From: Amoebophrya sp. A120
Lineage: Eukaryota; Protista; Dinoflagellata
NCBI GenBank assembly: GCA_905178155.1
Contig: CAJINV010000008.1
Coordinates: 2,170,001-2,234,000 of the forward strand
DNA length: 64,000 nucleotides
Reading direction: 5' to 3'
The translations under genes and the position numbers were made by a program. The notes beneath the pieces were generated by a model that was not told the origin of the DNA, did no database searches, and saw only the letters and a program-made list of their open reading frames with translations. This document shows, piece after piece, positions 25,401 through 49,400 of this stretch (the stretch's first letter is position 1; the number at the start of each line of letters is the position of its first letter).

Positions 25401-28400
25401 ATGCTGAAGGAAGTGGAAACGCATCTTCACCACCGCCCCAGGCGTGTTCCCGCCCTGCCTCTGATCCGCGTGCCTATATCCGATTTAGATATGCTTTACT
25501 CCTCATGCCTCGGCGATAACTGCAACCCGACGGCAGCGCTCAAACGGCCGGCTAACGACGCGAGTGCTGGAACCGAGTCAAGCCCATATGTTACGCATAC
25601 AGGAAACCATACAGAATTGGGCACTTCCGCTGATTGGATCGAGGTGCGCTTCAAGGATCGCGTGCCTCGCAAGGTCGCGGGTGTGGTCCTTTTCAAGCGC
25701 AACAGAGCAAACCAAGAGCACGACGTAAAACTTCAAGAAATCGGGCAAATTTTTTTGAACGGTTCCCCCACCGCTTTCAAGAACACGCCGAGTTTGGTCG
25801 ACTTTACAGGGACCTGGATTTCTATCGACCAGGAGGCGTGGTCGATACGGCTTCAGTATGCTTGGTTAGTGATCGTCGCTGGGTGGTGGGTGTTTGATAT
25901 CCTGTGCAAAAGTATCGTACAACTCGTATTGCAAACATGCATTGCAAATCGTTTTCTTAAGGTAAATCAGCATAGCATTACATTTCTCCTACCGAGGAAA
26001 TTTGTAATGCATTTACTTAATTAGCGGCCCTTTCATAAGTCCGGACATTTCACTCCTTGTCACATACCCAACGCTAAAGAAAAAAAAACGAATTTTGAAT
26101 AAGTCGGAACGTGTCCAGGAGCTGCGTCTGCAGCTACTCGCTCTTGTACAGCAGGCGCGCTCCCTTTTTTAGTTCCGTACAACAAGAAAAGAAGCAAGAG
26201 GCCTGTTTACAAGGAGCCTGCGCTTTATCAATGGCGTAGGCTTCTGAAGCAGCTTGCGCAGGGAAATAACGCGACGGAAGAAGTAGAAACAGCCAGCCGA
26301 AGAAAGTTCTCGACAGCTCGGAAACTTTAGTCCCCGTCGGCTGCCACCCAATGCAGTGCGCCGGGCGGCTTTGGTGTTTGTGTTTCCGTATAATAAACCA
26401 CGCAAGTGTGTTGCGCATTTGCGACGCCTGTTCCTTTGTCCATCGGCGCCGCATCTGCAACACCTTGCACAGTGTAGGCATCAGGAATACACAAACACGC
26501 CAAGAAAACAGGAACACTGATAGTCCGCACATTGCTACAGGTTGCGACTGTGCAGGCGCGCGCAGTGTAGTAAGTAAGCGGGCAGTTCTCGTTCTGGACC
26601 TGGAAGATGCGCCACGCTGCGCTGTACTGTCCGAGAGACCAACCATGCTCTCTTTGCAGTAATTACGTGCTTCATGTTTTTTTTGGTTAGACCTGTGTAT
26701 TGAGTCAGCACGAGAGAGTTCTATTTGCTGTCCTAGTTCCGCCGAGCTAATTCGGCAATTCTGACGTTTTTTTATGGGCGGCGAGGTAAAAACGCGTACT
26801 CAGGTCGGCGGGTTTAGGACTCTATTTCTCGATGACAGAACTTTTGCTCAAAAACAGCACACCAAACGCCGATGCTGTGGTCCATTTTTCTGTATCTTTG
26901 TAAGTCCAAACAGCGCGCCTTGTCCCCATGCTATGGTGGACATTCCGTGCTTTTTAAGGTGAAAACTTTAAGGAAAACGTCTGCAAAAATCTGGAACTTT
27001 ACTATACCAATCTCCAAGTTTTAAACCAGTACAGCGACTCCCAAGTTCTAAAGTAATTAAGTTTTATAGTTTTTTCGAAATTCTTAATGATCTCCAATTT
27101 CTCATAGCTTAACCAATGGTCCCCAAGTCTCCCAGGTCTGTTGTCTGCTGAAAAACGGTTCTATCCTACGCGAAACGCAAACACACTATTTTACGACCGA
27201 GGTTGGTGTTGCGGTGGCGTGACACCAGTCTTGAGTCTGCGTGGAGAGGCAGATAGACGCCTTCTCGCGCAATAGCTCAAAGTCAAAAAGTCAAAGACTC
27301 AGTACTTACTCAGTTGAGCGCTTCGGAGTGCTATGCGGGGACGGCTGCTCTGCGGGGGGACTGCTGGATGGAAGCTTAGGAGAAAAATTTGCGCGGGGAG
27401 TATTGGGGCATGAATTTCGAGTAAGCAGCCCTCTGAAACGCACCAAAGCAGTGCGCGCGTATTTAGACCCAGAAAATAGGTGGGCAAGCGGCGTAGATAG
27501 GTTGCAATGCTCGGGGGCTGACGGGATATACGGGCACTGTAAGCAAAATAAAAAAAGCCCGGGTAGGAAAAATGCACTTTGCGTTTTTTCCTACCCGGGG
27601 TTTTTATTTTCAAAGCCCCGGGTAGAAAATATTTATCCGCTGCTCTGCACGTCTGTGAGGGTGATGACATGTGATAGATATTTCCTACCCGGGGTTTTGA
27701 AAATAAAAACCCCGGGTAGGAAAAAGTTGAAAACTCATATTTCCTACCCGGGCTTTTTATTTTCAAAACCTCGTAACGCCCCTCCGAAATCTGGGCGGCG
27801 CGGCAGTGCCGCGAGAAATTTTTTTTCGGATCGCGGAGAGCTATGTGAGGTTTGGAAAACCAAAACCGCGTATAGCCCCCTCGAAATTTGGGTGGCGCGG
27901 CAGCGCCGCGAAGAATTTTTTTGGTTCGCGGACGGCTGTGTGAGGTTTTCAAAGCGAAAACCTCGTATAGCCTCCTCGAAATCTGAGCGGCGCGGCAGCG
28001 CCGCGAAGAATTTTTTTTTGGTCCGCGGATAGCTATGTGAGGTTTTGAAAGTCAAAATCTCGTATAGGCCCCTCGAAATTTGGGCGGCGTAGCAGCGCCG
28101 CGAAAAGTATATTTCCTACCCGGGCTTTATATTTTCAAAACCTCGTATAGCCCCTCCGAAATCTGGGCGGCGCGGCAGCGCCGCGAGTGTTTTTTTTGGT
28201 TCGCGGATGGCTATGCGCGGATGGCTATGTGAGGTTTTGAAACCCAAAACCTCGCATAGCCCACCCAAAACTTGGGCGGCGCGGCAGCGCCGTGAAGAAA
28301 TTTTTTTGGTTCGCGGAGGGCTATGTGGGGTTTTGGAAGCCAAAACCTTGGATAGCCCCCTCAAAATTTGGGCGGCGCGGCAGCGCCGCGAAGAAGTTTT

Positions 28401-31400
28401 TTGATTTTGCAACGCGGAGGGCTATAATGTCAGGTTCCGAAAACCTAAACCCCACTTAGGCCTCAGGGGGTCGCATCGGGTAAGTCGCGCCAACGCGCGG
28501 GCGCAGGGGCTGCAGCGCTGCATTTGGTTTCTACCGTCAGTGGTGTGGGCCAGAATGTGAAAAGTCAATTGACCTATGACCTTTATGAAAGGGCCGCTAA
28601 TTACGTCATGCAGGTATACGAGTAGGTGTAGGAGTGCGGTACTTATGCAGTTTATACTTGAGGACGCGAAGTACCCCAGCAGCGTCGCGGCCTGGAACCG
28701 CGACACAGAGACACTGCGAGTTCCCGAGTCGCTTTTGCGCGCGTCACAATCCAGTATCCGCTCATCAACCTATCCAACATATAGCGCGAACAAACCGCTG
28801 CAGTACGTGATGGGAACAGCTACAGAGTGGTTCGGTGGCTACTGTGCGTACACGGATGACACTGGTAGTGACAGCCTGAACTGGTGGCGCGTCGAGTTTG
28901 CGGATCAGAAGAGGCATCACGTCTCCCTCCTTCATCTCTTCAACCGTGATGCGGACGCGCAACGCCAGATGCGGCTGAACAAAGGCACCGTTTGGCTGGA
29001 TCCCCCTATCACAGTAGACGAAGACGATCTTCCAGCGCAGGCAACCGCAATCGGCCAGGAGCTGTTCGCGCTCTTGACGGGAGGAAACCTGACCGCTGGA
29101 ACCGACTATATCCAGCTCGGAACCATAGCTGGCGGCGCGAGCGGGGGCACGCAGATTCCGCTGAACGTGGGCGGGTTGCTCGCGGCAACGCATATCCACT
29201 GCAAATATGTGTGGGTCTGGAAAGGTGCAAACTTGTGATGCTCCCTGACTGGTGTCAGACGCACAAAAATCTGTCATGCGTGAGCAGCAGTCTGTGTCTG
29301 TTTACTTACTTATGTCATCCGTGAGCAGCCGAAGCTCCTATTTTTCGCCACGCTGAGAGAGGATTTCTCATGTGGAGTAGGCATTGTGTTTGTGAAGCTC
29401 TTGGAAATAACCTGTGAAGGTAGACTCTGCATTGCGAACCTTCTTGTCAGTCTATGCAAAACCTGCACGTGAAACGCTGCACTTTTCAAGACCCAGACAT
29501 ATTTTCAATGCACAACTCAGCCTGTGCGACGAATCTATGTCTTGGCGCCGCTCGATCGTAGTAGCTCCAACGGGGCTATCGAGTGCACATATGCCTGGGT
29601 CTGAGAGATTGCAAACTTGTGATGCGTCCTGTGGGTCACACAAAAACCTGTCTTACATGATTAAGTGCCAAAAGATGCCCGCTACGACCAAATTTAGAGG
29701 TTTCTATCAAAGACAGAAACGTCACAGAATCTGTCATGCAGCTAGGTCCTGCACTCCAGACGCAGACCTCCTGGGGCATGGACAAGCTGCGTGACAATTC
29801 TCCACATGTAGTGATTGGGGCATGGAGAACCTGCACGACAAGTCTTCACATCTCCGTGTCGTCACATGTGGTTCTTGAGCTTGGTTTGCGTGTGTCAGAG
29901 GTTTGCTGTTGGTTAACACACCAGAATTTAAAGTGCACCCCTGGGCGTCTGAACGTTTGGACCAAACGAGTAAACGTCTGGAAAGATCTCTAAACCTCTC
30001 GGCTTCCTTTGCATACAAAAGTGAAGACGGTGGAAGGGTTGGGTTGGGGGTCTAGGGTTTGGGGTTTCTGGTCGTTGGCCAGGGCAGCCGCCGCGGCCGG
30101 CCGGCCGGCGGCGGCTGCCCTTGCCGGCGATTCTCTTCCGTGTTGCGTTTGCGCCGCTGCCCCGCCCCCCGCCCTCGGCCGGCCGGCCGGCGGCGGCTGC
30201 CCTTGCCGGCGATTCTCTTCCGTGTTGCGTTTGCGCCGCTGCCCCGCCCCCCGCCCTCGGCCGGCCGGCCGGCGGCGGCTGCCCTTGCCGGCGATTCTCT
30301 TCCGTGTTGCGTTTGCGCCGCTGCCCCGCCCCCCGCCCTCGGCCGGCCGGCCGGCGGCGGCTGCCCTGGTCGGCGACCCTCTTCTTTGTTGTGTTTGCGC
30401 CGCTGCTCCGCCCCTTGCCCGCCGTTCTATTGCCTCCCCTCTGCGGTTTTCCTTGCTTATCACCGCCGCGATTCTTCTCCCCTGTGCCTCCTTTTGGTTG
30501 CTTCGTTATCGCCACCATCGAGATTCTTCGTTCTCCCTGTCAGCCAGTCTCCGACAACAAGAAACGACAGACGGGCTGCAATCTCAGCGAAGCTCGCGAC
30601 GTCACGTCGATAGTTCGGGCCCGCGGGCGATCGTTTGGACGCGTGATCGTGTGGCCCGGAAAGTTTAGACGAAAAAGTTTGGGTTCTGTCCTTTGCTGTT
30701 TATGGCCTTTCCCGGCCTCTCCCATGGGTAAATAATGGAAATGGTGAACCGCGATGACTGCCGCCGGGGACATTCATACGGTGTCAGCCGGATGGCTGTG
30801 GTCTGGCTCGTACTGCGAACGCAGCCGAGTGGCCCTTACCGGGCTCGCCTTTGATGGGCAGGCGGATGATTGTGACCGGTCTCGGCCATCAACATCCCTC
30901 AGCCGTAGCGCCTGGGCGTTGTATGGTCCGCAAATGGCGCCAGGGGGGGAAGCCGGGCGGCTGTGGCGTGCTCGGGCGGGGGCGCCCCGCTCCGTTTTCT
31001 CGGTCGGCTGAAAAATAACTAAGATTCCCGGCGCTTCAAAAATTCCCCGGCGCCGATCTGCCTTTCCGTCGGTCCCGGGGGTTTTGGTGGGTGCCCTGCC
31101 CGGTGTCGCCTCGGTCTCGCCGTGTTTTGGCAATTTTGGCGTCCACCACTTTCCCTCGGTTCCGGGCACCGAATGTATTCTCGGTGGGCCCCACCCTGCC
31201 GCCTGATGGGCCGCCAAAGAAATTGAAGATTTAATAATTCGGGCAGTTTTTGATTTTATCTCGGGCGCCCAAAGGTTGCGGCCGCGCTCCCCGAATCCGG
31301 TCGCAGTCATGTGGGTGCTCTTCGCGTCGTCTTTTGGGTTGGGGCGCGTCCTGTCCCCGGGGTGTTTCGCATGTGTGGTCCCCGATGTTGGTGCATGTTG

Positions 31401-34400
31401 AGGCTCGGTTCGACGAGCATGATGGTTGAAAAATGTCAGCCATCATGTTCGGAACGGGCAGGATGTGAGGATGACGCGGCTTCGGAACTCGGGAGGGGAG
31501 CATCAAAATGTCTTCTACGCCGGCACTTTGATGCTCCCGCCCCGGCTTCTAGTTCTAATCTTCTTCGAGTTCTGTTGGTCATGTGATCAGAACCCTACCA
31601 CAACCATGTCTGAAGCTTCTCCAGATGATCTGAAATGCCTGTTCCCAAGTGAGCAAATCAATGGGCATGCCGCTTACGGGCTGAGTCCATTGATTCCGTT
31701 CTGAATGACCTGAACGAGCTAGATCAAGTTGACAGAATACGATAGAAATGAGCCATCAATGGCCTTGCCGCTTACGGGCTGAGTCCATTGATTCGGTTCT
31801 ACTGTCCAGGTCGTATGGCTCTGCTCCTTACTTGATCACTTTAGTAGTTTGCCGCGAATCAATGGCCTTGCCGCTTACGGGCGGAGTCCATCGATTTGGT
31901 TTGGATTGCTCCCCTGGCTGTACTTGGATTCCTATGATTTTGCTCATGCTTTGATACGAATCAATGGTCTTGCCGCTTACGGGCTGAGTCCATTGATTCG
32001 CATGGATCTGAGTCCGAGCGGTCCATAAGAAGGTGATGAATTTGAATGACATTGAACCCACAGGATGCAACGCAGCCAGAGGCTTTCGCCCTGTCTGCTG
32101 AGCGATTGAAGTGCTGGAATTGGTTGAGAGACCTATGCAGGTAGAAGCTTTAGTCACTCAGTGTGGCAGGTGTGTTCAAAGTCCAACACTGCGCTGCGAC
32201 TTAGACGCGCATCTGTGCTACTTACACTAGTGAAAGTAGACTCAGCAAGAAAGCAAGATGACTGTGGCATCCGCAGAGATCGACGCGAAGCTGCCGGGTG
32301 CGACGGGTTGGATTGAGTGGGATCGCTCTGTCCGTGAGGAGGTTTCGCGCCTCGGACTAGACATCCAGTTCAGTCAGAGAGCCCGCGGGCCGCGGGAGGC
32401 ACTAAATCCCAGCTAATTTTTGCGGGATTTCCCCGAAGCCCTTAGGGCGGGCGGTGGTTTTCCTCCTCGGGCGCTGAAGGTTCCCGGGCCCGCAGGGTTC
32501 CACCCTTTTCCACCGCGCCCGGGGGGCCGGGTTTTTTTCAAATCCCCCCGTTGGCCCCGCGTGTGTTTTTCAATGAAAAGCCACGACGGAAATTAAAATT
32601 TAAAAATTAGGGCCGTTTGCAGGGGATTCGGAATTTCGAACGCCGCGGGGGCTTCTTTGGTATTTTCGTACCCGGGTGGCCCCGAAGGTGGAGGGCAGCG
32701 CTCGTGGTCTGGTTTTCATGGGGGCCCTCGGATTTTCGGCTTGGGTTGTGAAGACCTGGGCCGTGTGGCCAATGTTGCTATCCCTGCACCCTATCCCTGT
32801 TTCGTTCTTTCGCAAAGCCATTGTCGTTGGGCTTTTCGAAAGCGTTCNNNNNNNNNNNNNNNNNNNNNNNNNNNNNNNNNNNNNNNNNNNNNNNNNNNNN
32901 NNNNNNNNNNNNNNNNNNNNNNNNNNNNNNNNNNNNNNNNNNNNNNNNNNNNNNNNNNNNNNNNNNNNNNNNNNNNNNNNNNNNNNNNNNNNNNNNNNNN
33001 NNNNNNNNNNNNNNNNNNNNNNNNNNNNNNNNNNNNNNNNNNNNNNNNNNNNNNNNNNNNNNNNNNNNNNNNNNNNNNNNNNNNNNNNNNNNNNNNNNNN
33101 NNNNNNNNNNNNNNNNNNNNNNNNNNNNNNNNNNNNNNNNNNNNNNNNNNNNNNNNNNNNNNNNNNNNNNNNNNAATTAGAATAGAAAATAGAGCCCAAA
33201 AATAGAAACAAAATTAGCCGCAGAATTAGCAGCGAAAATAGCCGCCCGCGGGGGGTGTTTCGTATGGCTGTAACTGGGTGGGGTGTTCAATGGGTGACTT
33301 TGCTTTTCGGGCGGTTTTGGGATTTGGGGTTTTGCTTTGTGGGAATTCATCCTGTGCGAGATTGCCGGCGTTGCCATGCTCCATGTGTAGAAGACGGCCT
33401 GCTTCTCGTTGTTTTGTTTTTCTTGTCCTGGAGCCCCTCTCCTGATTGTTTTGGGACCTCGCGCGCGGCAACTTGCGTTGTCGCTTTTTCGGGTTTGGGC
33501 CTTCAACTATTATCCCGCTTGTCGGGGTTTGAAAAAATCCCGCAGAAATTAGCTGGAAATTAGCGGCCGCCACCGCCCCGGGGTTTCTAACTGATCCACT
33601 TCAACAGCGTCGTCGTCAATCTCGGTCAGCCCGGCCTCCCCGGGGGACCCGGGCAGCAGGCTCAGGCGGTTGCTCAGAAATGGCGCAACCTGAAGGCCGC
33701 GCTGCTGAAGTCCTTGGCTGGTTCTTGTAAGACCTGGCTGCACGCTCGTCCGAATTACAACGATCTGAATGCCGGAGCGTTGTGTTTGGAGCTGCGTGAC
33801 GTCGGTCACTACAACCAGCAGAACAGGACCCAGCAGAAAATCCGGTCAGCTGGTCTTGAATCGATGAAATTCGATGACCGCGACCAACCTCAGGGTCCGC
33901 CTACCTTCCTCGCCAAGGCAAGGCCAAGCGCATCATGGACCAGTCCCCTGCGGTGTTTCCGCCTGATGCTGCGCGTCCCCTTCCCGACCAGCAGGCCCAG
34001 AACATCTTAGACTACCTGCCCAAGATGTTTTCCAAGGGTTTCAGGGACACGATCGCGCGCATGGTGGAAGACGGCGCCCAGCTGACCATGCAGCAAATGG
34101 GTGACAAGCTGGCGACCCGCCTGCAGGCCATGATCAAGGACGGCGAGCACAAGGTGGAGAGTTCCAGCATCGGCATGCAAGGCGTTCCCGACGGTTGACT
34201 ACGACCAGGACAAGGCCGGGGGAGCCGTTTCCAAGAGACGCCCCCAGGCTCGTGGCAATGATGAGGACGGTAAAGCTTTCATGTCTGCGACTGCTCTCAA
34301 GCGGTTCAAGGCTAAACTGAAAAAGAAAGTTACCGCCGAAGTCCCCGCAGCCTGCCCAGGGTGGTGATCCTTCTACCCGCAAGGGCCAGAAGGGGAAAGG

Positions 34401-37400
34401 CAAGAAGGACAGGAAGGACTACTGGAAGAATATCCAGTGCTACAAGTGCGATGACTGGGGTCGCCACGCTTGGGAGTGTCCTACCGGCGCTGCGTCTACA
34501 GGAGGGAAACCCAAAGGCAAAGGAAGGGGCAACGCGTCCACCGGTTTTGGTGGGCCCGCGGTCTACTCGGACTGGGGTGGTGCCTGGGTCTGGCACGATG
34601 CCCGCGCTGGATCGGGATCCGGCAAGCCCGGACCGAGCTGAGACGAGGATCAAGATCCGGAACGGGGAAGATGTTGTTTGAATTTTGAGGAGGGTGAGAA
34701 TTATTGCGAGAGCGTCGTAGATTCGGTAAACTCTGCCGCTACTATGTTGGCTGTCGTTGGTTGGTTATTGTGCAGCCAGTTACCTAGGTGGAAAGCAGGC
34801 GAACCTAGTGGACAGCTGTGCAAGCAGATATTTGTCGAAGCACGCTGATGATTTTAAGAAAATCACGGGCCGACGCTGTACCATCAACGGAACAGCTGGC
34901 GCACGCGATGGATTTATTGGAGAACTAAAACAAGACCAATTAAACCTGCGACGTGGTGTTTATTTCAAAGATCTACCAAAGGACATTGATAGGAGTTTGC
35001 CTTGGCTCGGTGAGGGCAACAGGTCACAAGTAGGATGGGAGCTAACCTTTCACAGCACCGGCGGAACCATTGCCCACACTGGTACCGGCCGCGTGTTGGA
35101 CGTGAAGAATCGCCCCAGAATGTGCCTTCCCGTCCTCGGTTGCAACTTGTTTGACCTGCAGGAGGCAGATAGCACGGACCTCGTCTGTACTACTGTCGCC
35201 CAGGCCTCTTCTAGTGCTTGTTATTTGGCTAAACTAGAACTACGCAGACGCTTAGGACGCTTCCACGTGGACGGGCTCAGCGCCAGCTGTTCCGAGTGCG
35301 ATAGAACTAAAGGACAGAGAAGTCCACGCGTCAGCGTGCGAAATGTCGAAAATCATACACCTCAACCATTGAAACTATTAGCGTTAGACTTCGGCGTCGG
35401 TGTGAAACCCACTTCAATGATGAGGCGCACCTGTGTCCTTGTTGGTATCTGCGATGCCATCAAGAAGTGCTTTGCCAGGCCTCTCTTGTACAAGAGCGAC
35501 TGCGTTGAGGAGATTGGAGCGATTATCAAGGGCATTCGCGCAGACTGGTCATTGTCCTTGGGTGACAAGGTCTTTTGATTGGTTCCTGAGACGGGACAAG
35601 GAGCCAGCTCTGGGCAGTGAGCACATGACCAAAGTCATGCAATTGCTGCAGATCTGTGACGCTCCGCCTGTTCCTCACAATCCTGAGCAGAACGGAACTT
35701 GCGGACGTTTTATGCGGACGCTGTTCGGCTCCTGCCGTGCAGGCACGTTCACGGCGATCGCCGATTGTGGTCCTATGCCATAGTCTACAGCGGTGATTGT
35801 TGGGACCGGCTGCCGCATAAATATGCAAAGACGCCAGAGCATGACGGAGAGACTAGAGGACTGGAAGGAACAGTGCGAAGCAAGGCATTGGCCTGCTCAG
35901 GCGCTTACTTTGGTTGTCTTGTTTACTTCCGTGAACAAATCAAGACGGACAGAGAAGGGCAAGGAGGTCCCAGGCTCAGTCCGCCCGTTCGTCGAGGAGT
36001 GTTTCGGGCTTTGTCCTAAGTCATCGGGCTGGCTCGTGGGCACCTTCTTTACAGACGATCGGACACGAGACGGACATCGGTGAGCCGAGTACTCTACTCG
36101 CGATGTCAAGTCTCGAGAGGATTTACGCGCCAAGAGCATCGACTGGCTCCTATCCAGTTCGAAGGGAGTCTTCATACCAATGGACTACCTGGAAGACCTC
36201 CAAAGTGGCGCACCGCAACCGGTTCCACCCGCGCTTGGACGGCTAGACTCGCAATCTAGTTCGGCTCATCGCCTGGAGGTTCATGGGGCGGGGCACGCGG
36301 AGGAATCGACCGCCGGCTTAGAACTTCAAGTAGAGACACTGGACAGAGAGGTAGGAGGAAGAAGGTCCAGGCGAATCCCCCGAAGCTCCTATACTTTTGC
36401 AAGCTGAGGAGTGGAACCTCGCAGCGCGCAACAGTGGAGGAGGGGAACAAGCTCGCGCACCGAGCAAGGTTTGTGGCTGGCAACCGCAATTCCAAGCCGC
36501 GTCGCGGACGCCCGAAAAGGGTCAAGGATAAGAAGAAACGCACTCGGCGCACAAAAGCACAGCTCGAGCAGCTGAAGAAGAGCGCAGAGGCGTTTGCCGC
36601 AGCGAATTGGAACGCTATAGGCATGCTTGGCGATGGTGAGGAGATCGCCGAGGCCATAGCGATGCTGACGAACGCGGACGCCTGGGGAGCTTATCTGTCC
36701 GCTGAGAAGGCTGTCAAATTGCCTGACCCCGAGCTTGCAGCTAGGTGGCGGAAGGTAATTGACAAGGAGGAAGCTCGTCTGCTAGCATATGAGACGTGGG
36801 CGCCAGCCTCTGACGAGGAGCTACGTACCTAGCTACCGCGAGGCAAGTGCTTCCAATCGCTATCGTACTGACCATCAAGCGCGATGGGACGCACAAGGCT
36901 CGAGCCTGTGTGCTTGGCAATCTTGATCGGTCGTGTGATGTTGACACGTTCGCGCCAGTGGTATCGCATGCACCTAGTCGCTTGCTCCTGGTGTCTGCAG
37001 CCGTGCCGCAGAGGGCGGCCATGTCGTCCCGCATTATCTCGATAGCGCGCTCCTTAGTGCCTCGCTAGATCGCGACGTCTACTGCCGCTTGCCACTCATC
37101 TGGGCAGCAAAGTACAGGAGTGCAGTCGTGAAACTACACAAAGCGCTCTACGGGCTAAAGGACGCACCGCGGGCCTGGTTCAAGAAGTATGAGAGCTTCT
37201 TGACCGAGTTAGGTTGGGAGCCTTGTCCTCCTGCGCCTGGTCTGTGGAGAAAGCCAAGCACATCGCACCCAGGAAGTGTTCTCACGCTTGCTGTCTATGT
37301 CGACGACAACTTGATTGCAGGGCCTGACCTTGCTGAACTTCGTGCCTCAGTCAGAGAGCCCGCGGGCCGCGGGGCGCACTAAATTGCGGCTAATTTTCGC

Positions 37401-40400
37401 GGGATTTCCCCGAGGCCCATAGGGCGGGCGCTGGTTCTCCTCCTCGGGTGGTAAAGGCCCCCCTGGCTCGCAAGGTTCCGCCCTTTTCAGCCCGCCCCGG
37501 GGGGCCGGGTTTTTTTGAAGTCCCCCCGCTGGCCCCGTGTGTTTTGTCAATGAAGTGGCACGGCGGGAATTAAAATTTGGTAAGAGAGGGAATCAGACTT
37601 AGTAAACGGAATCAGACTAATGGAATCAGACTACAAGTGGAATCAGTCTAGTAGAATCAGAATAGTGAATAGAATCAAGATACTAGAATCAAGCTTATGG
37701 ATAGAATCAGGAGAAGCGGACTCTGAGTACGTCGGCGAATGTGGTGGCCGCGCATTCTCTATCGTATGCATTCGAGACGCTCTCTCCCTGCAGGCATCGC
37801 TTTGGTCCATCATGTCTTGCAGCTCCACCTGGTCGCGTTGGTCTCCTCGCAACTTCGCCCGCAGTTCTTGAATGCTGTGCGTTGCGATTCTACTTGGGGA
37901 CTTAGTTTGCATGTTGGGTATGTATGTCTGCTTAGCTGTTTCAGTTCGCTCCTCAGCGCACTTCATGCGCGACCACTTTAAAACACGCGCCAGGGGTTTG
38001 CTACTGGCGATCCCGGTTGACAAGGTGAAATGGAAATCTGAAGAATCCGAAAAAACCTGAAAGGTGGAAAAATAAGCGCCAACCATAGAAAAGAGAAACT
38101 AGAAGAACTACGCTTATCCACTGTGCTCCCTCGGTCTATTGCTTCTCTGTGCTCCTACTTCGCTGCGTTGCTTCTAGATTGCATCAAAAAAGCGCGCAAA
38201 AGTGCGATGCTTTGTGGGAGCCGAATTTCCGGACTTAGCCGCAAGACAGCTCCTTTTTGCGATTTTTGTTGAAAAATAGGGGGGAACTCTCGCAAATTTT
38301 TAAAAATCGGCCTCGTTTTCCGTGTTTTTACTTAGCGAAACCCGGGCGAGACAGGCCGAGGGGGATGATAGGCGCTGCCTCACAGCATTGCTCTGTACGC
38401 GCAGAAGCGCGGCGCTATATATGTGCCGCGGCCGCCGCATTCGATGCTCTCCATCCCGCCCTGCCTGTCCTGGTCTGTCCCCCCGCGCCCCGCCCCGGCT
38501 GCTTTGGAGCTGCGCTCCCGGCCTTGCAAACCGACTGACGGACCAGGCGGCCCCCCCGCCCGTTCGGTGGGCCGCCTAGAAAGTTGCTCAGGTTGGTACA
38601 TCGCCGCACGGGCCGGGGCCCGCCGTGCGTCGGTGCTTCGATTTTTGGGTGGGGCGACTCCACTCGCATTGCAAGTGGTCGGGGCCGCAGTGGCGCAGAT
38701 GTGTCGGCTGGGACTGCCCTGCTCCCCCAGGCGCCGCCCTCCGACCTAGGGGAAGCCACCTCCCCGAGGGCGCAGCCATCTGTATGTCGCAGCACGGCGG
38801 CTCCCGTAGGCTAGCGACCTGGCACCACCGGCGTATAGAGGTGGGCCGTGCCGGCGGCGAGGCAGGCTGTCTTCCCGGTCCTTGTGCGCCTGTGCGCAGC
38901 GCCTCCCGGCATGGGCGGCGGCGCCTCGCACTGCCCAGATTCTTTGACTATCGGAGGCGCCCACCCTCCCCTTTCTCATACTCGCGCAGGGCAGTATGAA
39001 AGGTGTCGAGGTGCGTGGGGGGGGGGAACGAAGACACGCCCGAGCAAATGGCGGGCGTGGGGCTTGTCGGGTGGGTGTTTAGCATGTGCACGCACGTTGG
39101 CCGTTTTTCCGTGGCTCTGCGTTTTCCCAGCAGCCGACCGCGCGTGGGCGCAAGCAACGCACGGACTGGATAGCAGAGCACTAGTTTGATTCCACTAGTC
39201 TGATTCCATTGGTAAAGCTGATTCCATTAGCCTGATTCCATGAATAAGTCTGATTCCGTAAATCCTTTAGTCTGATACCATCGACGACCAATTAAAAATT
39301 AGGGCTGTTTTCAGGGGCTTCGCAATTTCGAGCGCCGTGGAGGTTTCTTTGGTGTTTTCGCACCATGGTGGCCCGGAAGGTTTCGGGTAACAGTTTTGGC
39401 CTGTCTTTCACGGGGGCCCTCGGGTCTTCTGATTGGGTTGCGCAGACCCTGGTGTTTTGGCCAGTGTTGAAATTTGATCACCCGATCCCCGATCCGTTCT
39501 TTCGCAAGGCAATTGGCATTGGGCTTCTCGAAAATACCACCCGGGTTCCCGGTTATCTCGTATTCTATTTTGGACTTCTAAATGTGCTCGCTGTTTTGTT
39601 TTCTATTTTTCTGCGGGATTCGCGTGTTCGGCGGCTGTCGTTTCAGCTTCTATTTTTCGCGACACTGGGGATTTCCAAAGGAAATCCACCAAAGCGCGAA
39701 TTTAGAAGTTGAAAGACAGCCGTTGAAGCATGCAAATCCCGCAAAAAATAGAAAGCAAAATAGAAGCATGATTTAGAAGCAAAAATAGAATACGATTTAG
39801 AGCCCAAAAATAGAATACGAAAATAGAACATGGTTTAGAGTACGAAAATAGAACACGACTTAGCAGCGGAAATAGAGCACGAAAATAGAAACAAAAATAG
39901 AACGAAAATTAGCCGCAGAATTAGCACCGAAAATAGCCGCCCGCGAGGGGTGTTCCGTATGGGCAGAATTGGGTGGGGTTCCCGGTGGGAGTTTTTGTTT
40001 TCCGATTGGTTTTGGGGTTTGGGGTTTTGTCTTGTGGGAATTCACCCTGTCCGAGATTGCCGCTGCTGGCGTGATCCACATGCTGTGGGTGGCTTGCTTC
40101 CCATTTTGCTTTTTCCATTTTCCTGAAGCCCCTTGGCTGATTACTTTGCGATCTGGTGTGGCGCAGCTTGGGCTGTCGCTTTTTCGGGTTTGGGCCTTCG
40201 CTTGTTGTCCCGGGTCTCGGGGTTCGGGAAAATCCCGCAAAAATTAGCAGGAAATTAGCGGCCGCCGCCGCCCCGGGGTTTCTGACTGACGTGCCGAACT
40301 CCAAAAGACTCTGTCGCGCGTCCCCGGGCGTGAGATAGCTGCCGAACTCTCTACCGATTCTGATGGTATTGGGTGGCGAAAGTTCGACTTCCTTGGGGCG

Positions 40401-43400
40401 ATTGCGTACTACTCTAGGGAGCACAAGTCAGTGCGTGTGACCATGGAGGAGTATATAGAGAAAATTGCAAAGAAGTTCGCCGTGACATTAGGCAAGCCGG
40501 TACGTTCTCCGAATTTTGACGAGTCAGCTCTGACGGCAGAAGATCTTGAAGAGCTGAAGGACAACCCTCGCAGATCCGTAGTTGGTGCGCTGCAATGGAT
40601 CGCGACCCCTGCGCGTCCCGACATCTGTGTGCCGGTTTCTACTTTAGCTCGCTACGTGAGCAAACCAGCCACGAAACGGATCGCGTAGGTACGCCGGTAG
40701 AAAAGTGACTACGTTCCTCCTGACGACGCGTGAAGTGGGACTGTCGTACAGTCCAGCGGAAGAAGTGAAGTTCAATGAGATTTATCAGAAGATAGTGCCG
40801 GAGGGCAGGGACGTGCCGCGTCTGAGCCTGTTCCTTCTCTGCTGCTGGTTTCGTCAGGCGGACGGCCCGGGGCGGGGCAACGCGCTAAACGCCAGCTATT
40901 TTCTGGCTAAATTGAAAAGCCGAGAGGGCCATGGCCTGGCCCCAAGGCACGAACCCCCGGGCGCCGCGCCCACCGAGGGAGCGAGCTATTGTCTTCGGGG
41001 CCCCCGACACGCCCGAATCTCGGCAGTGGAAACAGGCGGGCCGGGCGCCCCGCGGCCCGAGAAGCCGCTTCGGAATGCTTCTGGCTAGAGCGCGGCGAGC
41101 TCCGCCCCAAGGGCCCGCTACTGAAAACTCCCCAGGATCCATTGTGAAAAAGTACAGGAGATTTCTTCCGGGCCGGAGGCGAGATGATGATCATCTCGCG
41201 AGATGGTGATCATCTCGCCTCCGGACCGGATAACTCTTCTCCTAAATTGGCCCCGGGAGGCCGAAAAAAAAACGGATAAATAAGCCGCTAAATATGCCGC
41301 TAAATGTCCGGATAAATTGGGTCCCCCGGGGGGTGCCCGAGGTGCCCCGGGGGGTGCCCAGGCAAAATTCCTTCCCATTTTCACTGTCCCCCTCATTTAT
41401 CCCAATATTTATCCCAATATTTATCCCGATTTTATCCGGAATTTATCCCCATACTTCTCCGGATATTTATCCGGATTTTCTTGGGAAAATAGCCTGAATT
41501 TATCCCAATATTTATCCCATTTTCGGCTGCCGGCCGCGGGGCCTCGGCCGCCAGCTGGCAATAGGATAAATCTTGGAATAAATATCAGGCAAGGGAGCTG
41601 GCCCTTGCAAAATTTAAAAATTCGAGGCGCAAACGCTTCGAATTTTTAAATTTTAAAACGGCCGAGGGTGATGCCGGGGTGGGGCGCTGCCGGAAGGCTG
41701 TCGCCCCGGGCCCCGCGGGAAGCCGCGACAGAGACCCGCCGCCCGGGTGCTCAATGCACGGCAGGGAACGTGGCCCGGCGCGCCTAAACGGCCAAGCCAC
41801 ACGGAGCAAAAAAGACGCGCGGCAAGCGGGCAGATTTATCCAGGTCAGAGCCGGAATCTACTCGGGAAACCCGCCCCGGGTCGTCCGCCTGAGGTTTCGC
41901 GAATTGTTTGAAGACGATGCGTCCTACCACTGGCTCGATTATGTACTACCGCGGTTGCCCGATCTGTTGGCGCAGCAATCGGCAGACTTTGCGCGCGTAT
42001 TCGACGGCGGAGAGCGAGTACGTCGCAGCCTCGGACACTATTGTGCTCAGTGAGCAGAACGATTTCGCTGACTTCTTTGCTCCTCTTCCTACCAAGATGG
42101 TAGAAACGCAGCACGGCTTATCCCCATCCCTGGTTGAAGCCATCTTGTGGGTGGGCAACCAATCCGCAATCGCTACGGCCAAAAGCACAGACACACAACC
42201 CAAGTCACGGCATTACGCTCTACGCTACTTGCGTGGGCGCTGCCAGTCGTATAGTCTTCTGCCCCACGCACCTGATGAAGGCAGACGGTCGGACTTACGA
42301 AGCTGGAATGCTCAGTCCCACGGCGCAAGCTGCTTTCGCATCACGTAGACAATCTCGTCGTCGCCTGTGCCTCTTCACGCCCCGACGTCCAGTCGGATGA
42401 TGAGGATGATTTTGATGCTTCTTGCTATACTAGTTTCTACGATGATAGTGGAGGAGCTTTAGTGTTGTACGCTGTAGACTTTGGATTCTAGCCCGCGGAG
42501 GGGTGTACGTGCGTCCTTTATATCAGAGGTATATCATGGGCAAGGCATAGGAAGACTCTTGGAGGCTTACAGACTGCAGCGATTGAGGAGGGGTGTTGGT
42601 CATGTGATCAGAACCCTACCGCAACCATGTCTGAAGCCTCTCAAGATGATCTGAGACGCCTGTTCCCAAATGAGCAAAGCAATGGGCTTGCCGCTTACGG
42701 GCTGAGTCCATTGGTTCCCAATACGATAGAAATGAGCAATCAATGGCCTTGCCGCTTACGGGCTGAGTCCATTGCTTCGGTTCTACTGTCACGGTCGTAT
42801 TGCTCTGTTCCTTACTTGATCACTTTAGTAGTTTGCCGCGAATCAATGGCCTTGCCGCTTACGGGCGGAGTCCATCGATTTGGTTTGGATTGCTCCCCTG
42901 GCTGTGCTTGGATTCCTATGATTTTGCTCATGCTTTGATGCGAATCAATGGTCTTGCCGCTTACGGGCTGAGTCCATTGATTCGCATGGATCTGAGTCCG
43001 AGCGGTCCATAGGAAGGCGATGAATTTGAATGACATTGAGCCCACAGGATGCAACGCAGCCAGAGGCTTTCGCCCTGTCTGCTGAGAGATTGAAGTGCTG
43101 GAATTGGTTGAGAGACCTGGTTAGGTAGAAGCTTTAGTCACTCAGTGTGGCAGGTGTGTTCAAAGTCCAACAAGTTCTGCTGTCCAAGTCCAAAAGTAGG
43201 AAAATCCAGTGGGGTTTTACACTACAAGGAGGCCGAAGGCTTCTCGGACATGATCCGGGGAGCCGGATTTCCTCCGGATTGATTCGGAACAGAATTAGAA
43301 GAAAACTAGAAAAGGAAGTAGAAGGGAAATGAAAAGGCAGAACCAGAAAGGACGTTAAGCGGCATTTTAGAAGGAAGATTAATAGTGTTAGTGGACTTGA

Positions 43401-46400
43401 GAACACTCGCACACACTTCCACGCGCTTGCTCCACTGAGCTCGTTAGCAGCAGCAGTGTCGTGAATTCTCTCCGTTGCAAGTAAGCAAGCAAGTGCCGCA
43501 AGTCTCTGGCTGCGTTACATCCTGGAGGCCCAATTCATCCAACTTCATCGCCTTCATATGGATCAAGCGGGCTCTGATTCATGCGAACCAATGGACTCAG
43601 CCCGTAAGCGGCAAGGCCATTGCTTCGAGGTAAAACATGAACAAAATCACAGGGATCCAAGTACAGCCAGGAGAGCAATCCGAACCAAATCGACGGACTC
43701 AGCCCGTAAGCGGCAAGGCCATCGATTCGGGCGAAACTACTAAAGCGATCAAGTAAGGAGCAGAGCAATACGAACTCGACATCGGGGCCGAATCAATGGA
43801 CTCAGCCCGTAAGCGGCAAGCCCATTGATTTGATCACTTCTATCGTATTCCGGCGACTTGATCTAGCTAGTTCAGGGCGTTCAGAGCTGTCACTTCGTTC
43901 GGGAATCAATGGACTTAGCCCGTAAGCGGCAAGCCCACTGATTTGATCATTTGGGAACAGGCATCATGTGGGGCGATCGTGTTGCGTGTGTGCGGGATCG
44001 ATTTCCATGACCAACAAAGAGAAAAGATCGCAGAAGGGAAAGCAGAAAGGATTTTAGAGGGGGAAACTCGACGGCTGTTTTGGAAGAGGAAACAAATTAG
44101 CCGAGAACTTTAGAAGCGAGCCAAAACTGGAAGGAAGTTCATTGTAGAAGGGAAAAGCAAAAGGGTCGGGGCGGGGCATCATGGGAAGCGTTCGCTGTGT
44201 GTCCGCATCTCTGGGGTGGGGCAGTTGTGCGGCCGGATGTCGTCAGTAGGGTGTTGCATATATTCGGGCGCTTGGGCGAGGAGGGTCGGGCGAGACTCAT
44301 CTCCACACGGTGGAAGGAGCTCGATTCGGCTTTGCCCGCCATCTGGGTGTTTCTTTTGTCTTTGGGCTGCTTAGGTTTCCCGCCTTTGGGCGACTTTATT
44401 TTGTTGGGCAACCTGCTCCGGAATCGGAAGCGTGAACAAATCGAAACACCGGAAAAGTAGCGAAGTTTTAGAAGCCAAGGCGGAGCGGGTGTCTCCCGCC
44501 TGGGCGTGCACCTAAAGGGCGGCGGTGGTCGATCGTGCTGCTGTGGGCCCCGTGTTCCGGCTACTCCGGATCGCAATCGGTGGAGGGCGGGACATGCACA
44601 GGCGACAGGCGCTATCCAGTCAACCAGGCAAGTTTTGCAATCTTCCAAGGCCAGACATATTTGCACTTGATAGTGGCGGGGCCTCACTACAACGACACGA
44701 GTGATGCATTGGTCATCTGTGGTGCCCACCTCTATGCCCCTGCGTCGGCTCTGAACGACGTACAAAGCCGACTCAATGTGGCGCGGTATGTGGAAACTCA
44801 AATTCCTGCTGCCCTGATGCACGGCGCGCAGTCGAGTAGTCTCTACGACACATATGCAGAACTTCCGTTGCAATATCGATACGGCAGGACCACAGAGTGG
44901 CAAGAGCACGAGCAAGAGAACCAGCAAGCAGGGGGAGGGGGAGGGGGAGGGCAACATGGAGGGCGTGTGCGAAATCTACTTAGCAATCTGGAATCAAATT
45001 GTTGGAATCACGTTGAAAGTGAATTCAAGTTAATGCAATCAAGTTAATGAAATCAAGTTAGCAATGAAATCAGGTTAGTGGGTAATAGAGTCAGGCTGTG
45101 CGTACTAACTTGCGCGCCTCATCTATCCACTGCAAAGATGTCTGGTTCTGGACGGTTGCAACATTTGTCATGCAAGTTGTCTGCCACGACGACGACCCAC
45201 AGCCTCTGCATGTGAGCGCTGCATCTTTTTCGATATTCATTTATATAGGTTGGTAAGAGAGGGAATCAGACCGAACAGATGGAATCAGACTAGTGCATGG
45301 AATCAGACTAGATGCGGAATCAGTTTAGTGGAATCAGAATAGTGAATAGAATCAAGACACTTGATGCAGACTTATGCGCTGAATCTGCATCCCCATCCGT
45401 CGTCGAATGAATGTGGTCGGTCATTGCGTTCTCTGTCGTATGCATTGGGCATGTTGATGATGCCCCCCTGCAGGCATCGCTGTGGCCCATCGCTTTCTCG
45501 TCACTTCATCTGTTGGCAGTGCGTGTTCGCTGCTGCGCTTCTATTTCAGGCGGGACTTGGCTTGCGTGCTCTGTATGTCTGCGCATCAGGCCACATCTAG
45601 ACGGAGGGGGGGCAAGGTTTTCATAGTATATCTCGCATAGAAATTGTTTTCGGCGATCCGTGGTGGTCAGCCCGGGCCAACTTCTATCACAGGCTCCGGA
45701 TCATTGTCGGCGCACTCGCTTCCTCATTCTCGCGACGGCACGACTGGCAGACCGCGCGCGTGTCATGGTTGGATGACGGGGGCGGGCCCTAGCAGGTACT
45801 ACATGCAGATGCCTTGTTTTTGGTTTCAGATGCCATTGCTTTCTTTTTTGGTCAGGCGTCCGGGCCCGGGCCATGTCAGCCGGTAAAGCTTTGGCAATAT
45901 TCCGGCAATTTTTTTCAAATGCCTAGGGGCGCCGCCGGCTTTCCGTCGTTATGTGTGCCGGGTCCTTTGGCCGTGGGTGCCGGTTTTGCCCCCGCCCCCG
46001 GCCGTGGTCTTTCCCAGTTTCTGGTCGTGCTCGTGGGCGCCTTGGCCGTGGCCAGTTATTTTCGGGCTGTTCGATGTTGGGTTTCGTGTATTTCGGGGCG
46101 TGGTGGTGTGAGGCGTGATGGTTCGGCTGCCCGTCGTTTTTGTTTTGTGGTTGAAAACCTCTCTCATATTCCGACCCGCAAGCCCTGCGCTCGTGTCGCC
46201 TCGTCATGCAATTCTGTCGGATCTGTCCTGAAAGGTCCGACAGAATTGCATGGCGGGACGAAATGGTCGCCATCTTCGTTTTACTCAAAACAGCCCGAAA
46301 CCGGCATGAACTGCAGCAAAAGCTGCAACTCATGCTGCAACTCATCGTGCAATTTTCGGCCGAACACCGTCCCGACCATTTTTGAAAAGCTGCAATTGGC

Positions 46401-49400
46401 GCTGCAGTTGGCCGTGCAATTTTCACGCAATTTCAGGTCCAGGTCCGAAAACAAAGCAAATGGCTTGGTTTTCGTACCCCCCCCTGAAATTGCAGCTTTT
46501 TTGCGCACTCAATTGCAGCGTCAGTTGCAGCTTTCCGAGAGTGGTGTGGGACAGTGTTCGGGACACTTTTTGCACAGTGAGTTGCGCACTTTTTGCACAC
46601 AAGTTGCACACTCTCCTGGGATATTGTCAAAAGTTGGGGGGCGAAAGTGATGCTGCATGTGGCGCGCCCGCGCCTGTTTCCTGGGGTTTCTTTCAGAAGC
46701 GTGCCGCCCATAGCTGGTTGGAAAAATGCGCGCAGGGTGGTGATGTCGCGCATACCCCCGATTGCCCCCCGCCGGTCTCCGGGGGTTGTCTGCAAAAGAT
46801 GTCTCCGCCCCAGGCGCAAGGCCCGGCCGCAAGGCGGTGTTGCGATGAAGATGCCCGCCTGCGCCGGATGGGTGTGTTGTGAGTGCCCGCGGGGCGCGTC
46901 GATCTGCGCAGCGGGGGGGCCTCTTTAGTCTATGTCTAGGCCCGCCAGGGTGCTGGTGTGCCTGTGTGTTGGCTCCTCACCTCTAGAAAGACGCCTGGGC
47001 CGCGTGAAAAATAAAACCCACCAGGGAAGGCAACAGCACTCCTACGCAGGCGCGGCCATAAAAACTGCAGCGCCTGCCTTGGCGCAAAAAAAACATGGCA
47101 AATCCCGACGGTATGCTGCGAATTTCTTGAGGGATTAGAACAGCGCTGAAGATCACCTATTTCGTGTCTACACAGCGTGGCTGATCTGCTCGGCGATACA
47201 GAAAAAATAAAGCTACGCCCGAGCTAGAGATACACCTACGGCGTGCCTCTCGTGCGGGCCCGAGCAAAATGCTGTCGGTTGGGCCCTCCCGCCGCCGCCT
47301 GCGCTCTTCTCCCTACGGGATCGGGCCCCAGTGGGGACAAAATAAAAAAAATGATGTGCGTGTTTTTTTAAAAGGCCGCGGCCGTTTTTTTTCTTTGGAT
47401 TTTTCAAAGAAAAAAAAAACTTGCGCGCCTCTTACATGGCGCGCGCGAAAGGCCCCGGCCTCTTCAGTGTGTGTCCAGGGGATTGGCGTGACTTTTGGGC
47501 TTGCGCCGTCTTGGTTGCCGATAGGACGCAAACCCTCGGGAGCCGCCGGCCTTTGGGGTGGTGTCTGCCGTTCGCATCGGGGGAATATTTGTGGCCCTTG
47601 ACCGCTGGCGCGGAGTGAGAGGGACGAACGCAAGGACGTTTTTGTCGTAAAAGCAGCACCTCCCGGCGCCGGAGGCTTCGAGGTGCACGCAGATCATGAC
47701 TCCGAAATCTGTGGGCATCTATCTTCGAAGCCCGCGGCGACGGGGCGCGCTTTTTTTACGACAAAAAATTCCACAATTTACGACAAAAAATCTAAAAAAA
47801 TTTAAAAAAATCAAAAAAAATTGCGTCGCAAGAAAAACCTTAGGGGTCTGCGCTACCTTGGGGAATTCTGCCATTTTTCGTCCCGCCCTTGTCATTTTTC
47901 TGACACGGACTTGACATGGATTCCGGATTATTTGTCGTAAGATTTCGCCGTCAAGATTCCGTTCTGAAAAATGTGGGTGGGACATTGTGTCTTGTCTTCG
48001 GTGGAGCCTGATGATGAAGGTCTTCTTGGTGTCTTGCAAGAACCTCGCGTGTGTCCTCCCAGAGGCCGGGGCCCGATCGGCGGGAGGGTTGGTTTCTCAC
48101 TTGCGTGGCGACACACCCGCGGCCCACCTCGGAGCCACGGAAGGGGCCGGCGGTTGGTCTTGGGCGCGCCTACCATTTCCTCATTCCGTTTTTTGCCCCT
48201 GATATTCCTCGGACGCCGGCGTGGTGCATGGCCGCGACATAGTTGGCCGATGGGCGTGCGCGCCTTCGCTTTTGCCTCACCCCCTTTTCGTTTTTGCCAA
48301 TTTTTTTTTTTCCGCTTTTTTCCAAACTTAAAAATCACGGCTATTATTTTTTATTTTATGGGCCCACTGGGGCCCGATCCCGTTGACTTCTCCCTCCGGG
48401 CGTCGTTCCAGCGTCCTCCGCTCAGTAGCCCGCGCCTACCTGTGCAGGCGAGCAGCGTCTTCATCTAGCTACTCCAGTAGTCCCCACGTCCCACCACCGC
48501 GGCCGACGCAGCAAGGCAAGCGCTTCTGGGGTTTCAAGCTCGTAGTGTAGGGCTCAGATTTTGACTTCTTCGAACCATGGGAGTGCCGCGGGATTCTTCG
48601 AGGGGAGTGTGGGCAAACCATGGGAGTGTGGGAAAGCCATCCGATCTCCTGGGAAAACCATGGGAGGTGGGAAAGCCATGGGATTGGCGTGGGAATTCTT
48701 CGAACAGGGCGGGGAGCGTTTTAGCCCCCGCGGCCGCAGCAAAACCATAGGCGGGCGCGCGGATTCGTCCTTCCGGGTGGTTCCGCGGGGCCGGTGCTAG
48801 CTGGGGCGACTAAAGCAGCAAAGCCAGCTCGCTGCTTTTTGGTATGGGTCTGGTTTCTTTTCTCTCGGACAATCCTCCAGAGTCAGGAGCGCTATCCCTT
48901 CCAGCTTCTGGGGACACATGGTGGCGACGGGTGTCATGAGCAGCATACATCACCCGAAAAGAGCCCGGCCATCAAGCACTCCTGTTGTCCCGTCCGAAAG
49001 GATGACGAGGGGAACTGCGGCCGCACTAAATTGATCGGCTACATTGGGTGCCCGAGTAGCGTGATGGACTATGAGCCGGCTGCGAAAGCTTTTCTTGAGC
49101 TTTGCCGCACGCGGTACGGCGCGCGCGGACCCTTCCCGGAGCATTGGGGCTGATGTCTGGGATGGCACCAAGTCCGTGAGTGAGAAAATGTTGGGCCGGC
49201 TCTACACGCCCGCAAAGGGGCTGGGGTTTTTACGGAGAGCGAAGGCTCGGAGGCCGAAGGCGAGAAGGAGGGGAGGCAGCCTGCTCCACCGCCTCGCGTA
49301 CTTAGATAGACTCGGGGGAGCGACCGCGCTTGGTGCGCGACCTGTGTCATCGTGTGAGAAATACGACACCAGCGAAAGTGCCAGGGAGGAAGAGGATTTC

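Follow-up and report, generated by a model that had tools for sequence, protein, structure and literature searches.

In the dinoflagellate Amoebophrya sp. A120, a marine parasite most of whose introns are mobile elements roughly 300 bases long, a 15,101-nt intron with non-canonical ends is removed exactly, as one piece at the mRNA level, and the exons on either side of it are joined in frame. The intron lies at 29574..44674 on the plus strand (leftmost placement; it slides by 3 nt) of the window analysed here, a stretch of 64,000 nucleotides from contig CAJINV010000008.1 (assembly GCA_905178155.1, positions 2,170,001 to 2,234,000 of the forward strand), in whose own numbering all coordinates are given. 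It is an A120 introner element by every biological criterion tested, and its interior holds a nest of transposons. On balance we lean towards reading it as a spliced introner with a nested interior, removed through the pairing of its terminal arms over 15 kb, with that pairing acting as the selector.

The RNA evidence comes from a comparison of six of the ten sequencing runs listed. Two of them, X3 and X5, represent one sample and consist of assembled contigs of copied RNA; the run kind is a software guess, though the contigs join many exons. The joint 29573|44675, which skips the 15,101 nt, is present in contigs of both X3 (depth 9.03) and X5 (depth 3.5). The X3 contig of 1965 nt consists of three exons and no other letters, with a 327-nt neighbour of the giant intron removed as well. 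These are the upstream exon (28658..29190, plus strand, leftmost placement; residues 770-946 of the public protein P0003), the exon of 56-57 nt directly before the giant intron (29518..29573, plus strand; found in the X3 and X5 contigs) and the downstream exon (44675..44979, plus strand). RNA is placed on the downstream exon up to 44895, which is where placement is cut at a repeat and not the exon end, and the end at 44979 is taken from the public protein P0001; the first-pass annotation, made from the sequence, had ended this exon at 44902.

The reading frame is open over both joints (29190|29518 and 29573|44675), and a retained giant intron would lead to a stop after 11 codons. P0003 already includes the 29573|44675 join; public gene models are built from transcript alignments, perhaps on similar data, and the protein was not counted as independent of the RNA contigs. 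That the whole 15.1 kb is one intron joining both exons in frame had been proposed in the first-pass annotation, and the X3 and X5 contigs, together with P0003, supply the transcript linking the two exons for which that proposal called.

The DNA run X1 holds unspliced contigs over the left border (28584-29639) and the right border (44300-45346), and shows no such joint among the 3 listed for 28450-45000, so removal does not take place at the DNA level, as far as the contigs show. The contigs with the join leave the unique interior of the intron without cover. Further downstream, small terminal inverted repeat (TIR) elements are spliced out in an X3 contig of 3498 nt (44300-59700). In the same region the raw RNA runs X8 and X9 (2026) cover 3 of 30 bins, with the gene uncovered and matches at element ends only; run X7 covers 3 of 30 bins of 28450-45000. 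We regard the existence of a 15,101-nt intron as close to certain.

The ends of the intron are those of an introner family, called family B here. The left arm (29577..29855, plus strand) has a TIR starting TATC and matches profile positions 1-241 (E 2.8e-14), and the right arm (44604..44672, plus strand) has a TIR ending GATA and matches positions 198-268 (E 2e-6). Outside them stand the direct repeats of a target-site duplication, GGGGC at 29572..29576 and GTGGC at 44673..44677, both on the plus strand. Of 30 bases in the terminal inverted repeats TAT..ATA, 22 are complementary, and the direct repeats agree at four of five positions. The left arm finds 20 matches of at least 17/30 in the window; a 4/5 direct repeat accompanies only the one at 44672, while the remaining 19 have 0-2/5, and end scans of the window returned no family B right end between 29577 and 44672. 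The proposal that the left TIR at 29577 is first partnered at 44672, with a matching duplication, is borne out by this sole such match.

Elsewhere in the window seven family B copies, with lengths of 244-322 bp, each pair their ends locally, and the duplication is 5 bp in every perfect copy. One of the ordinary introners is the immediate neighbour, a 322-bp family B element with a decayed right end (29193..29514, plus strand) that is spliced at the joint 29190|29518. In the giant intron the arms alone, and not the whole 15 kb, are family-repeated. The earlier estimate of an element of about 260 bp agrees with the size of the family; judged from the profile, however, the rim is not one clean family B copy, because its two B-like arms match overlapping stretches of that profile and a second TAT-like left end lies at 29705. 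This second end, within the left arm, scores 10.8 bits, and no partner was found for it. Over 34 nt at 59324-59358, reads of run X8 with other flanks match the family B end, so that the same end motif occurs in the X8 material.

The four registers possible at 29573|44675 would give intron ends GG..GT, GC..TG, CT..GG or TA..GC. None of them is GT-AG or GC-AG, and the AG with which the right arm closes is ruled out.

The transposon nest inside the intron

The giant intron very probably arose by nesting. A miniature inverted-repeat transposable element (MITE) of about 300 bp would have inserted into an exon with a 5-bp duplication; a copia element would have landed in the MITE and taken up three TIR elements, one of which would have taken a fourth. 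Nesting reaches four levels if the introner is counted as the first, and the earlier description of four levels holds on that count. The earlier inventory of the interior (copia, two hAT-like and two further TIR elements, a solo long terminal repeat (LTR) and an 82-bp satellite) is confirmed throughout, the elements having duplications of their own.

The largest component is a decayed Ty1/copia retrotransposon at 31573..43172 on the plus strand, with LTRs at 31573-32188 and 42595-43172 that are bounded by TG..CA, lie 4.5% apart and are flanked by a 5/5 duplication. Its reverse transcriptase is recognised at 36978-37343 (RVT_2, PF07727, E 1.9e-16, 60.8 bits against a cut-off of 31.6). A Pfam scan of the broken frames upstream of the reverse transcriptase gave no integrase match, and 11 of the 14 frames scanned had no Pfam match of any kind.

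Two elements of one family, to which no strand was assigned, sit within the copia. The first, with CAG..CTG ends (32371..33593; TIR 12/16, 8-bp duplication 7/8), lies inside gag and holds the single N gap of the intron, 327 N at 32848-33174, which the first-pass annotation had also pointed out. The second (37348..40288; TIR 13/16, 8-bp duplication 6/8) lies inside the reverse transcriptase. hAT transposons are recognised by an 8-bp duplication and short TIRs of the CA..TG type, and both elements are called hAT-like from their termini and duplication length alone. At the deepest level, inside the second of them, is a TIR element with an 11-bp duplication (37579..39289; TIR 10/16, duplication 10/11). 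The first hAT-like copy carries a short AT-rich duplication at 32590-32610, where its relative carries the element with the 11-bp duplication (37568-39300), and this may possibly be an excision footprint.

The copia pol holds one more TIR element, with a 7-bp duplication (40854..41892; TIR 15/16, duplication 7/7). Outside the copia, a solo LTR of a related copia family lies at 43386..44016 on the minus strand, 17% from the 5' LTR and with a 4/5 duplication; contigs have loose ends at both of its borders. The 82-bp satellite (30094..30414; 3.9 copies, 96% matches) directly follows a telomere-like short G/T tract at 30036-30068. A further TIR element enclosing the copia (29933..44511; TIR 12/16, duplication 4/5) is possible, and is a weak and uncertain candidate. 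These TIR elements and the satellite are likewise unstranded.

Cut register and the choice of splice ends

A fixed cut register is probable for these elements. The 16 junctions of P0003 and P0001 all come from one gene, and at each of them every cut yielding the annotated protein was listed. Only one register is common to 14 of the 16; it cuts 1 nt upstream of the left TAT and 4 nt downstream of the right ATA and is abbreviated (1,4). A fifteenth junction, 24212|24468, has a decayed direct repeat and fits if the left TAT is put, by eye, at 24214, and the 3' offset of 4 is allowed by all 16. RNA sets the junction 52855|52981 at (1,4) without any slide. Under this register the giant intron would run from 29576 to 44676, with ends CT..GG. 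The register predicts a T at position +2, and all six of the nine predominant A120 splice types that were examined have it (Table S4 in the available portion of PMC7789003).

The proposed mechanism is that the terminal arms would pair, set the cuts at fixed distances and loop out the 15-kb interior for removal in one step. The splicing machinery would then read the ends alone and leave the interior free to grow. U1 was not detected in A120, according to the accessible part of PMC7789003. The predicted pairing energy of the arms is -49.3 kcal/mol, and they are each other's best partners, the best of 2916 intron windows reaching -40.1 and -30.7 kcal/mol; 500 shuffles give -16.6 +/- 3.4 kcal/mol. 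Among ends scoring at least 7 bits inside the giant intron, 11 that resemble left ends and 4 that resemble right ends go unused in the contigs. Among the other paired elements, 6 of 36 ends fall below 7 bits, and the neighbour at 29193-29514 is spliced even without a terminal ATA. The unused decoy ends favour long-range end pairing, which we infer to be likely, over motif-only recognition. The suggestion that TIR pairing may define the intron has fared in two ways: the intron is established, and pairing is its likely definer, favoured by the decoys.

Several observations weigh against this reading. On either side it is the true end that scores highest as a motif (11.8 and 14.7 bits), so motif ranking together with exon definition could choose them. 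The arms are mismatched at 8 of 30 positions (27%), and no compensatory change was seen, none having been sought. The neighbour's left arm (29193) pairs with the right arm at 44672 at -42.0 kcal/mol, compared with -39.5 kcal/mol with its own right arm, and skipping of the 57-nt exon is not seen in the contigs, which drop rare forms. The register derives from one gene, and one of its junctions, 44979|52774, belongs to a 7.8-kb element whose left end has decayed; there the 5' offset is broken and just the 3' offset holds. The pairing itself is a prediction, and the joint comes from copied-RNA contigs of a single sample.

A rival explanation is that the ends are recognised separately, with nTAT acting like a donor, an acceptor measured off as ATA and the four bases after it, and exon definition across the short exons, such that no pairing over 15 kb would be needed. 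The motif ranking of the true ends within the intron agrees with it, as do the short flanking exons (57 and about 300 nt). In the 7.8-kb element, moreover, the 5' cut is annotated 1 nt before a TAG-type motif that lies 8 nt inside the decayed arm, where a donor seeking its motif would put it. An nTAT end looks like a donor of yeast type, and the right TIR like a branch point, a resemblance and no more. However, short introns work with ends weaker than the unused decoys, and a right-like end of 8.6 bits just 440 nt from the 5' cut goes unused in the contigs. Based on this, separate recognition seems unlikely, though it deserves to be taken seriously.

Stepwise removal with the inner pieces first, in the manner of twintrons or recursive splicing, is very unlikely. 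Decoy TAT-like and ATA-like ends do lie inside the intron, such as that at 29705, and Amoebophrya splice sites are described as very tolerant in the available text of PMC7789003. Yet among 35 x 37 candidate ends no inner TAT..ATA pair had a matching direct repeat (the best pair reached 16/25), the termini of the copia and of the four TIR elements differ from TAT..ATA, and no RNA joint inside the intron is among the 3 joints listed.

The joint could also be an in-vitro artefact, produced when reverse transcriptase slips at a hairpin between direct repeats, or a product of trans-splicing of two transcripts. False introns of this kind, in copied RNA and from hairpins with short flanking direct repeats, are documented in PMC8240250 as far as it is available; 29573|44675 has a 3-nt microhomology, and its support is copied RNA and not direct RNA reads. 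Against this, the false introns of PMC8240250 have a median of 353 nt, the neighbouring joint 52855|52981 has no microhomology and 24212|24468 has a decayed repeat, the joining contigs show no unspliced template (the unique interior having no cover), and the frame stops after 11 codons without the join. An origin of this kind is highly improbable.

It is hardly credible that the assembly was joined wrongly at the N gap, or that the element is excised from the DNA in part of the cells: no DNA contig among those listed bridges 32848-33174, yet a mis-join is made unlikely by four paired features that continue across the gap (the outer TIRs with their repeat, the LTR pair at 5/5, the hAT-like TIRs at 7/8 and the gag frame), the gap span matches that of the related hAT-like element (343 against 347 nt), RNA links the exons on both sides, and X1 contains no empty site.

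Removal of non-canonical introns in A120 without detectable U1 has been an open problem since 2021. The 15-kb case makes the interior and its length irrelevant and narrows the signal to about 50 nt per end with a precise, testable register. Natural experiments on pairing versus motif recognition are offered by inflated introners whose arms are intact, decayed or in competition; this one gene holds three such introners.

The host gene and its other inflated introners

The downstream exon, used as a query, gave three protein matches, all source-named Amoebophrya sp. A120, with P0001 100% identical. P0003 (1049 aa) and P0001 (1041 aa, partial) were mapped in nine blocks each from 22172 to 57816. 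They overlap in a G-rich repeat near 44900-44960, and it appears that one long gene has been divided there into two partial public proteins. The host gene region (22172..59966, plus strand) carries these two partial annotations and encodes a protein of surface type, modular in build, whose repeats are PAN/apple-like and F5/8-type-C-like. The PAN matches are weak (best E 1.8e-4), and the language-model look-alikes of residues 820-1000 are F5/8 type C domains (0.94; a lead only); together they suggest that the surface protein is lectin-like. One such module contains the giant intron. The peptide joined across it aligns with an uninterrupted paralogous unit downstream at 44.8% over 223 columns (E 4e-51), as the first-pass annotation had seen.

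All 16 mapped junctions of P0003 and P0001 correspond to TA..TA-type TIR elements. Three inflated introners make up 25,659 of the 30,564 intronic nt of the gene, a total counted over 20 introns, four of them inferred solely from TIR pairs. Introners can descriptively be called safe harbours for other transposable elements on this count, as had been suggested; no special mechanism is needed for it, because any surviving insert in a gene must sit in an intron.

The second inflated introner, of 2,764 nt, lies at 25894..28657 on the plus strand, with TIRs spanning 25898-28656 and a junction in P0003. A loose end of an X3 contig maps to 25864-25893 and supports its removal. Inside is a TIR element at 26019-28602 (20/20) with a 97-bp satellite.

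The third is the element with the decayed left end, 7,794 nt long (44980..52773, plus strand, from the P0001 junction). The element itself (44973-52773) has AATC as its left end, and a family B left end lies inside it at 45124. In P0001 the 5' cut, 1 nt before the inner TAG motif, keeps the frame, whereas exact removal of the element would shift it. An X3 contig starts at 52611 in its right arm and retains the last 163 nt; RNA splicing of the element is not shown among the joints listed, and it is spliced in the public model only.

Outside the gene, at 11356-17595 on the minus strand, the window holds a second copia-like element with a 5/5 duplication and LTRs 4% apart, with satellites extending to about 18770.

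Comparison with known systems

Long introns of plants and animals that are filled with nested retrotransposons have grown by secondary insertion and have kept GT-AG ends and recognition by U1, whereas here the boundary signals are the transposon ends themselves.

The closest likeness is to the A120 introners of Farhat et al. 2021 (PMC7789003), which have non-canonical ends, inverted repeats starting TAT and 3-5-nt direct repeats over exon borders; many families occur there, and the organism label is the same. Unlike them, the giant intron is about 60 times their mean length of 240 nt. Its 15,101 nt lie outside the 40-1000 bp limit of that survey, which is an analysis filter and not a biological criterion, and the longest A120 intron in its Table 1, given without description, measures 35,152 bp. 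That survey left the cut position relative to the hairpin as variable or unknown; in the present gene, 14-15 of 16 junctions agree with a single register. In another Amoebophrya, most introns are GT-AG and U1 is present (PMC12005148).

The A120 introners of PMC7789003 and the giant-intron join in the public gene model are already known. Within the literature searched (partial texts and supplements, no subscription papers), no account of Amoebophrya introners that are nested or giant was found, and the nested anatomy, the fixed register and the two further inflated introners of the host gene seem to be new. The claim is tempered by the join in the public model, by the 35-kb introns listed for the genome and by intron growth through nesting being ordinary elsewhere.

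The nonconventional introns of euglenids (PMC12501133, PMC11282704, in their accessible portions) likewise have non-GT-AG ends and a short paired motif whose distances from the cuts are fixed, reach thousands of nucleotides and have a likely MITE origin. Their spacers are 3 and 5-6 nt around CAG/CTG, with a purine at the exon start, as opposed to 1 and 4 nt around TAT/ATA here; the sequence does not follow the Euglena code N3-CDG ... CHG-N5-6 then purine, reading instead n-TAT ... ATA-nnnn in the inferred register. The Euglena code also requires base pairing of the ends, which is predicted here. Euglenids are an unrelated lineage, and the resemblance is in working and not in membership. In Fritillaria borealis, MITE-derived introns also use TIR ends as splice sites, with a spliceosome that has adapted to them (available parts of PMC11282704 and 10.1101/2025.08.15.670264); those elements carry preferred AG-AC and AG-AT, whereas in the present case the host duplication supplies the bases at the cuts, which are free to vary. 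The TA..TA termini are shared with IS3EU/GingerRoot transposons (PMC10045372, as far as available), unlike which the duplication is 5 bp instead of usually 6 bp and the element has no transposase. RNA pairing over 30 kb acts in human ATE1, according to the accessible text of PMC7797038.

The comparison with the greatest consequence is with Gozashti et al. 2025 (PMC12130899), whose available parts describe A120 TIR introners with copia or gypsy homology and call them retrotransposon-derived or of unknown mechanism. Family 38 there has a 5-bp duplication and TA..TA termini. Family 3 has 3,852 copies, with PF07727, PF00665 and cd09272 matches and coordinates to 16,127 (the column heads are merged), and the largest A120 family, with RVT_2 and integrase matches and coordinates to 16 kb, is classed as non-LTR. 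In supplementary file 8 the short A120 TIR families 3, 16, 21 and 135 have coordinates of 4-19 kb and copia domains, which would be expected if some of their members are inflated. The word 'nested' has no occurrence in the main text of that paper.

We entertain, without leaning towards it, a bolder reading in which the TIR duplex would itself be the splice signal replacing U1, a length-blind ruler (1 nt at the 5' end, 4 nt at the 3' end) across at least 15 kb, and the A120 families called retrotransposon-derived would be inflated TIR introners. If it were true, tens of thousands of A120 introners could each swell into a transposon nest and leave the gene unharmed. In contrast to the reading of Gozashti et al., the copia here has its own LTRs and its own duplication inside the introner, which makes it cargo. 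The locus shows an introner gaining copia domains by secondary insertion and bears on claims of retrotransposon-created introns in A120; copia as nested cargo may also explain the copia-bearing families of that study.

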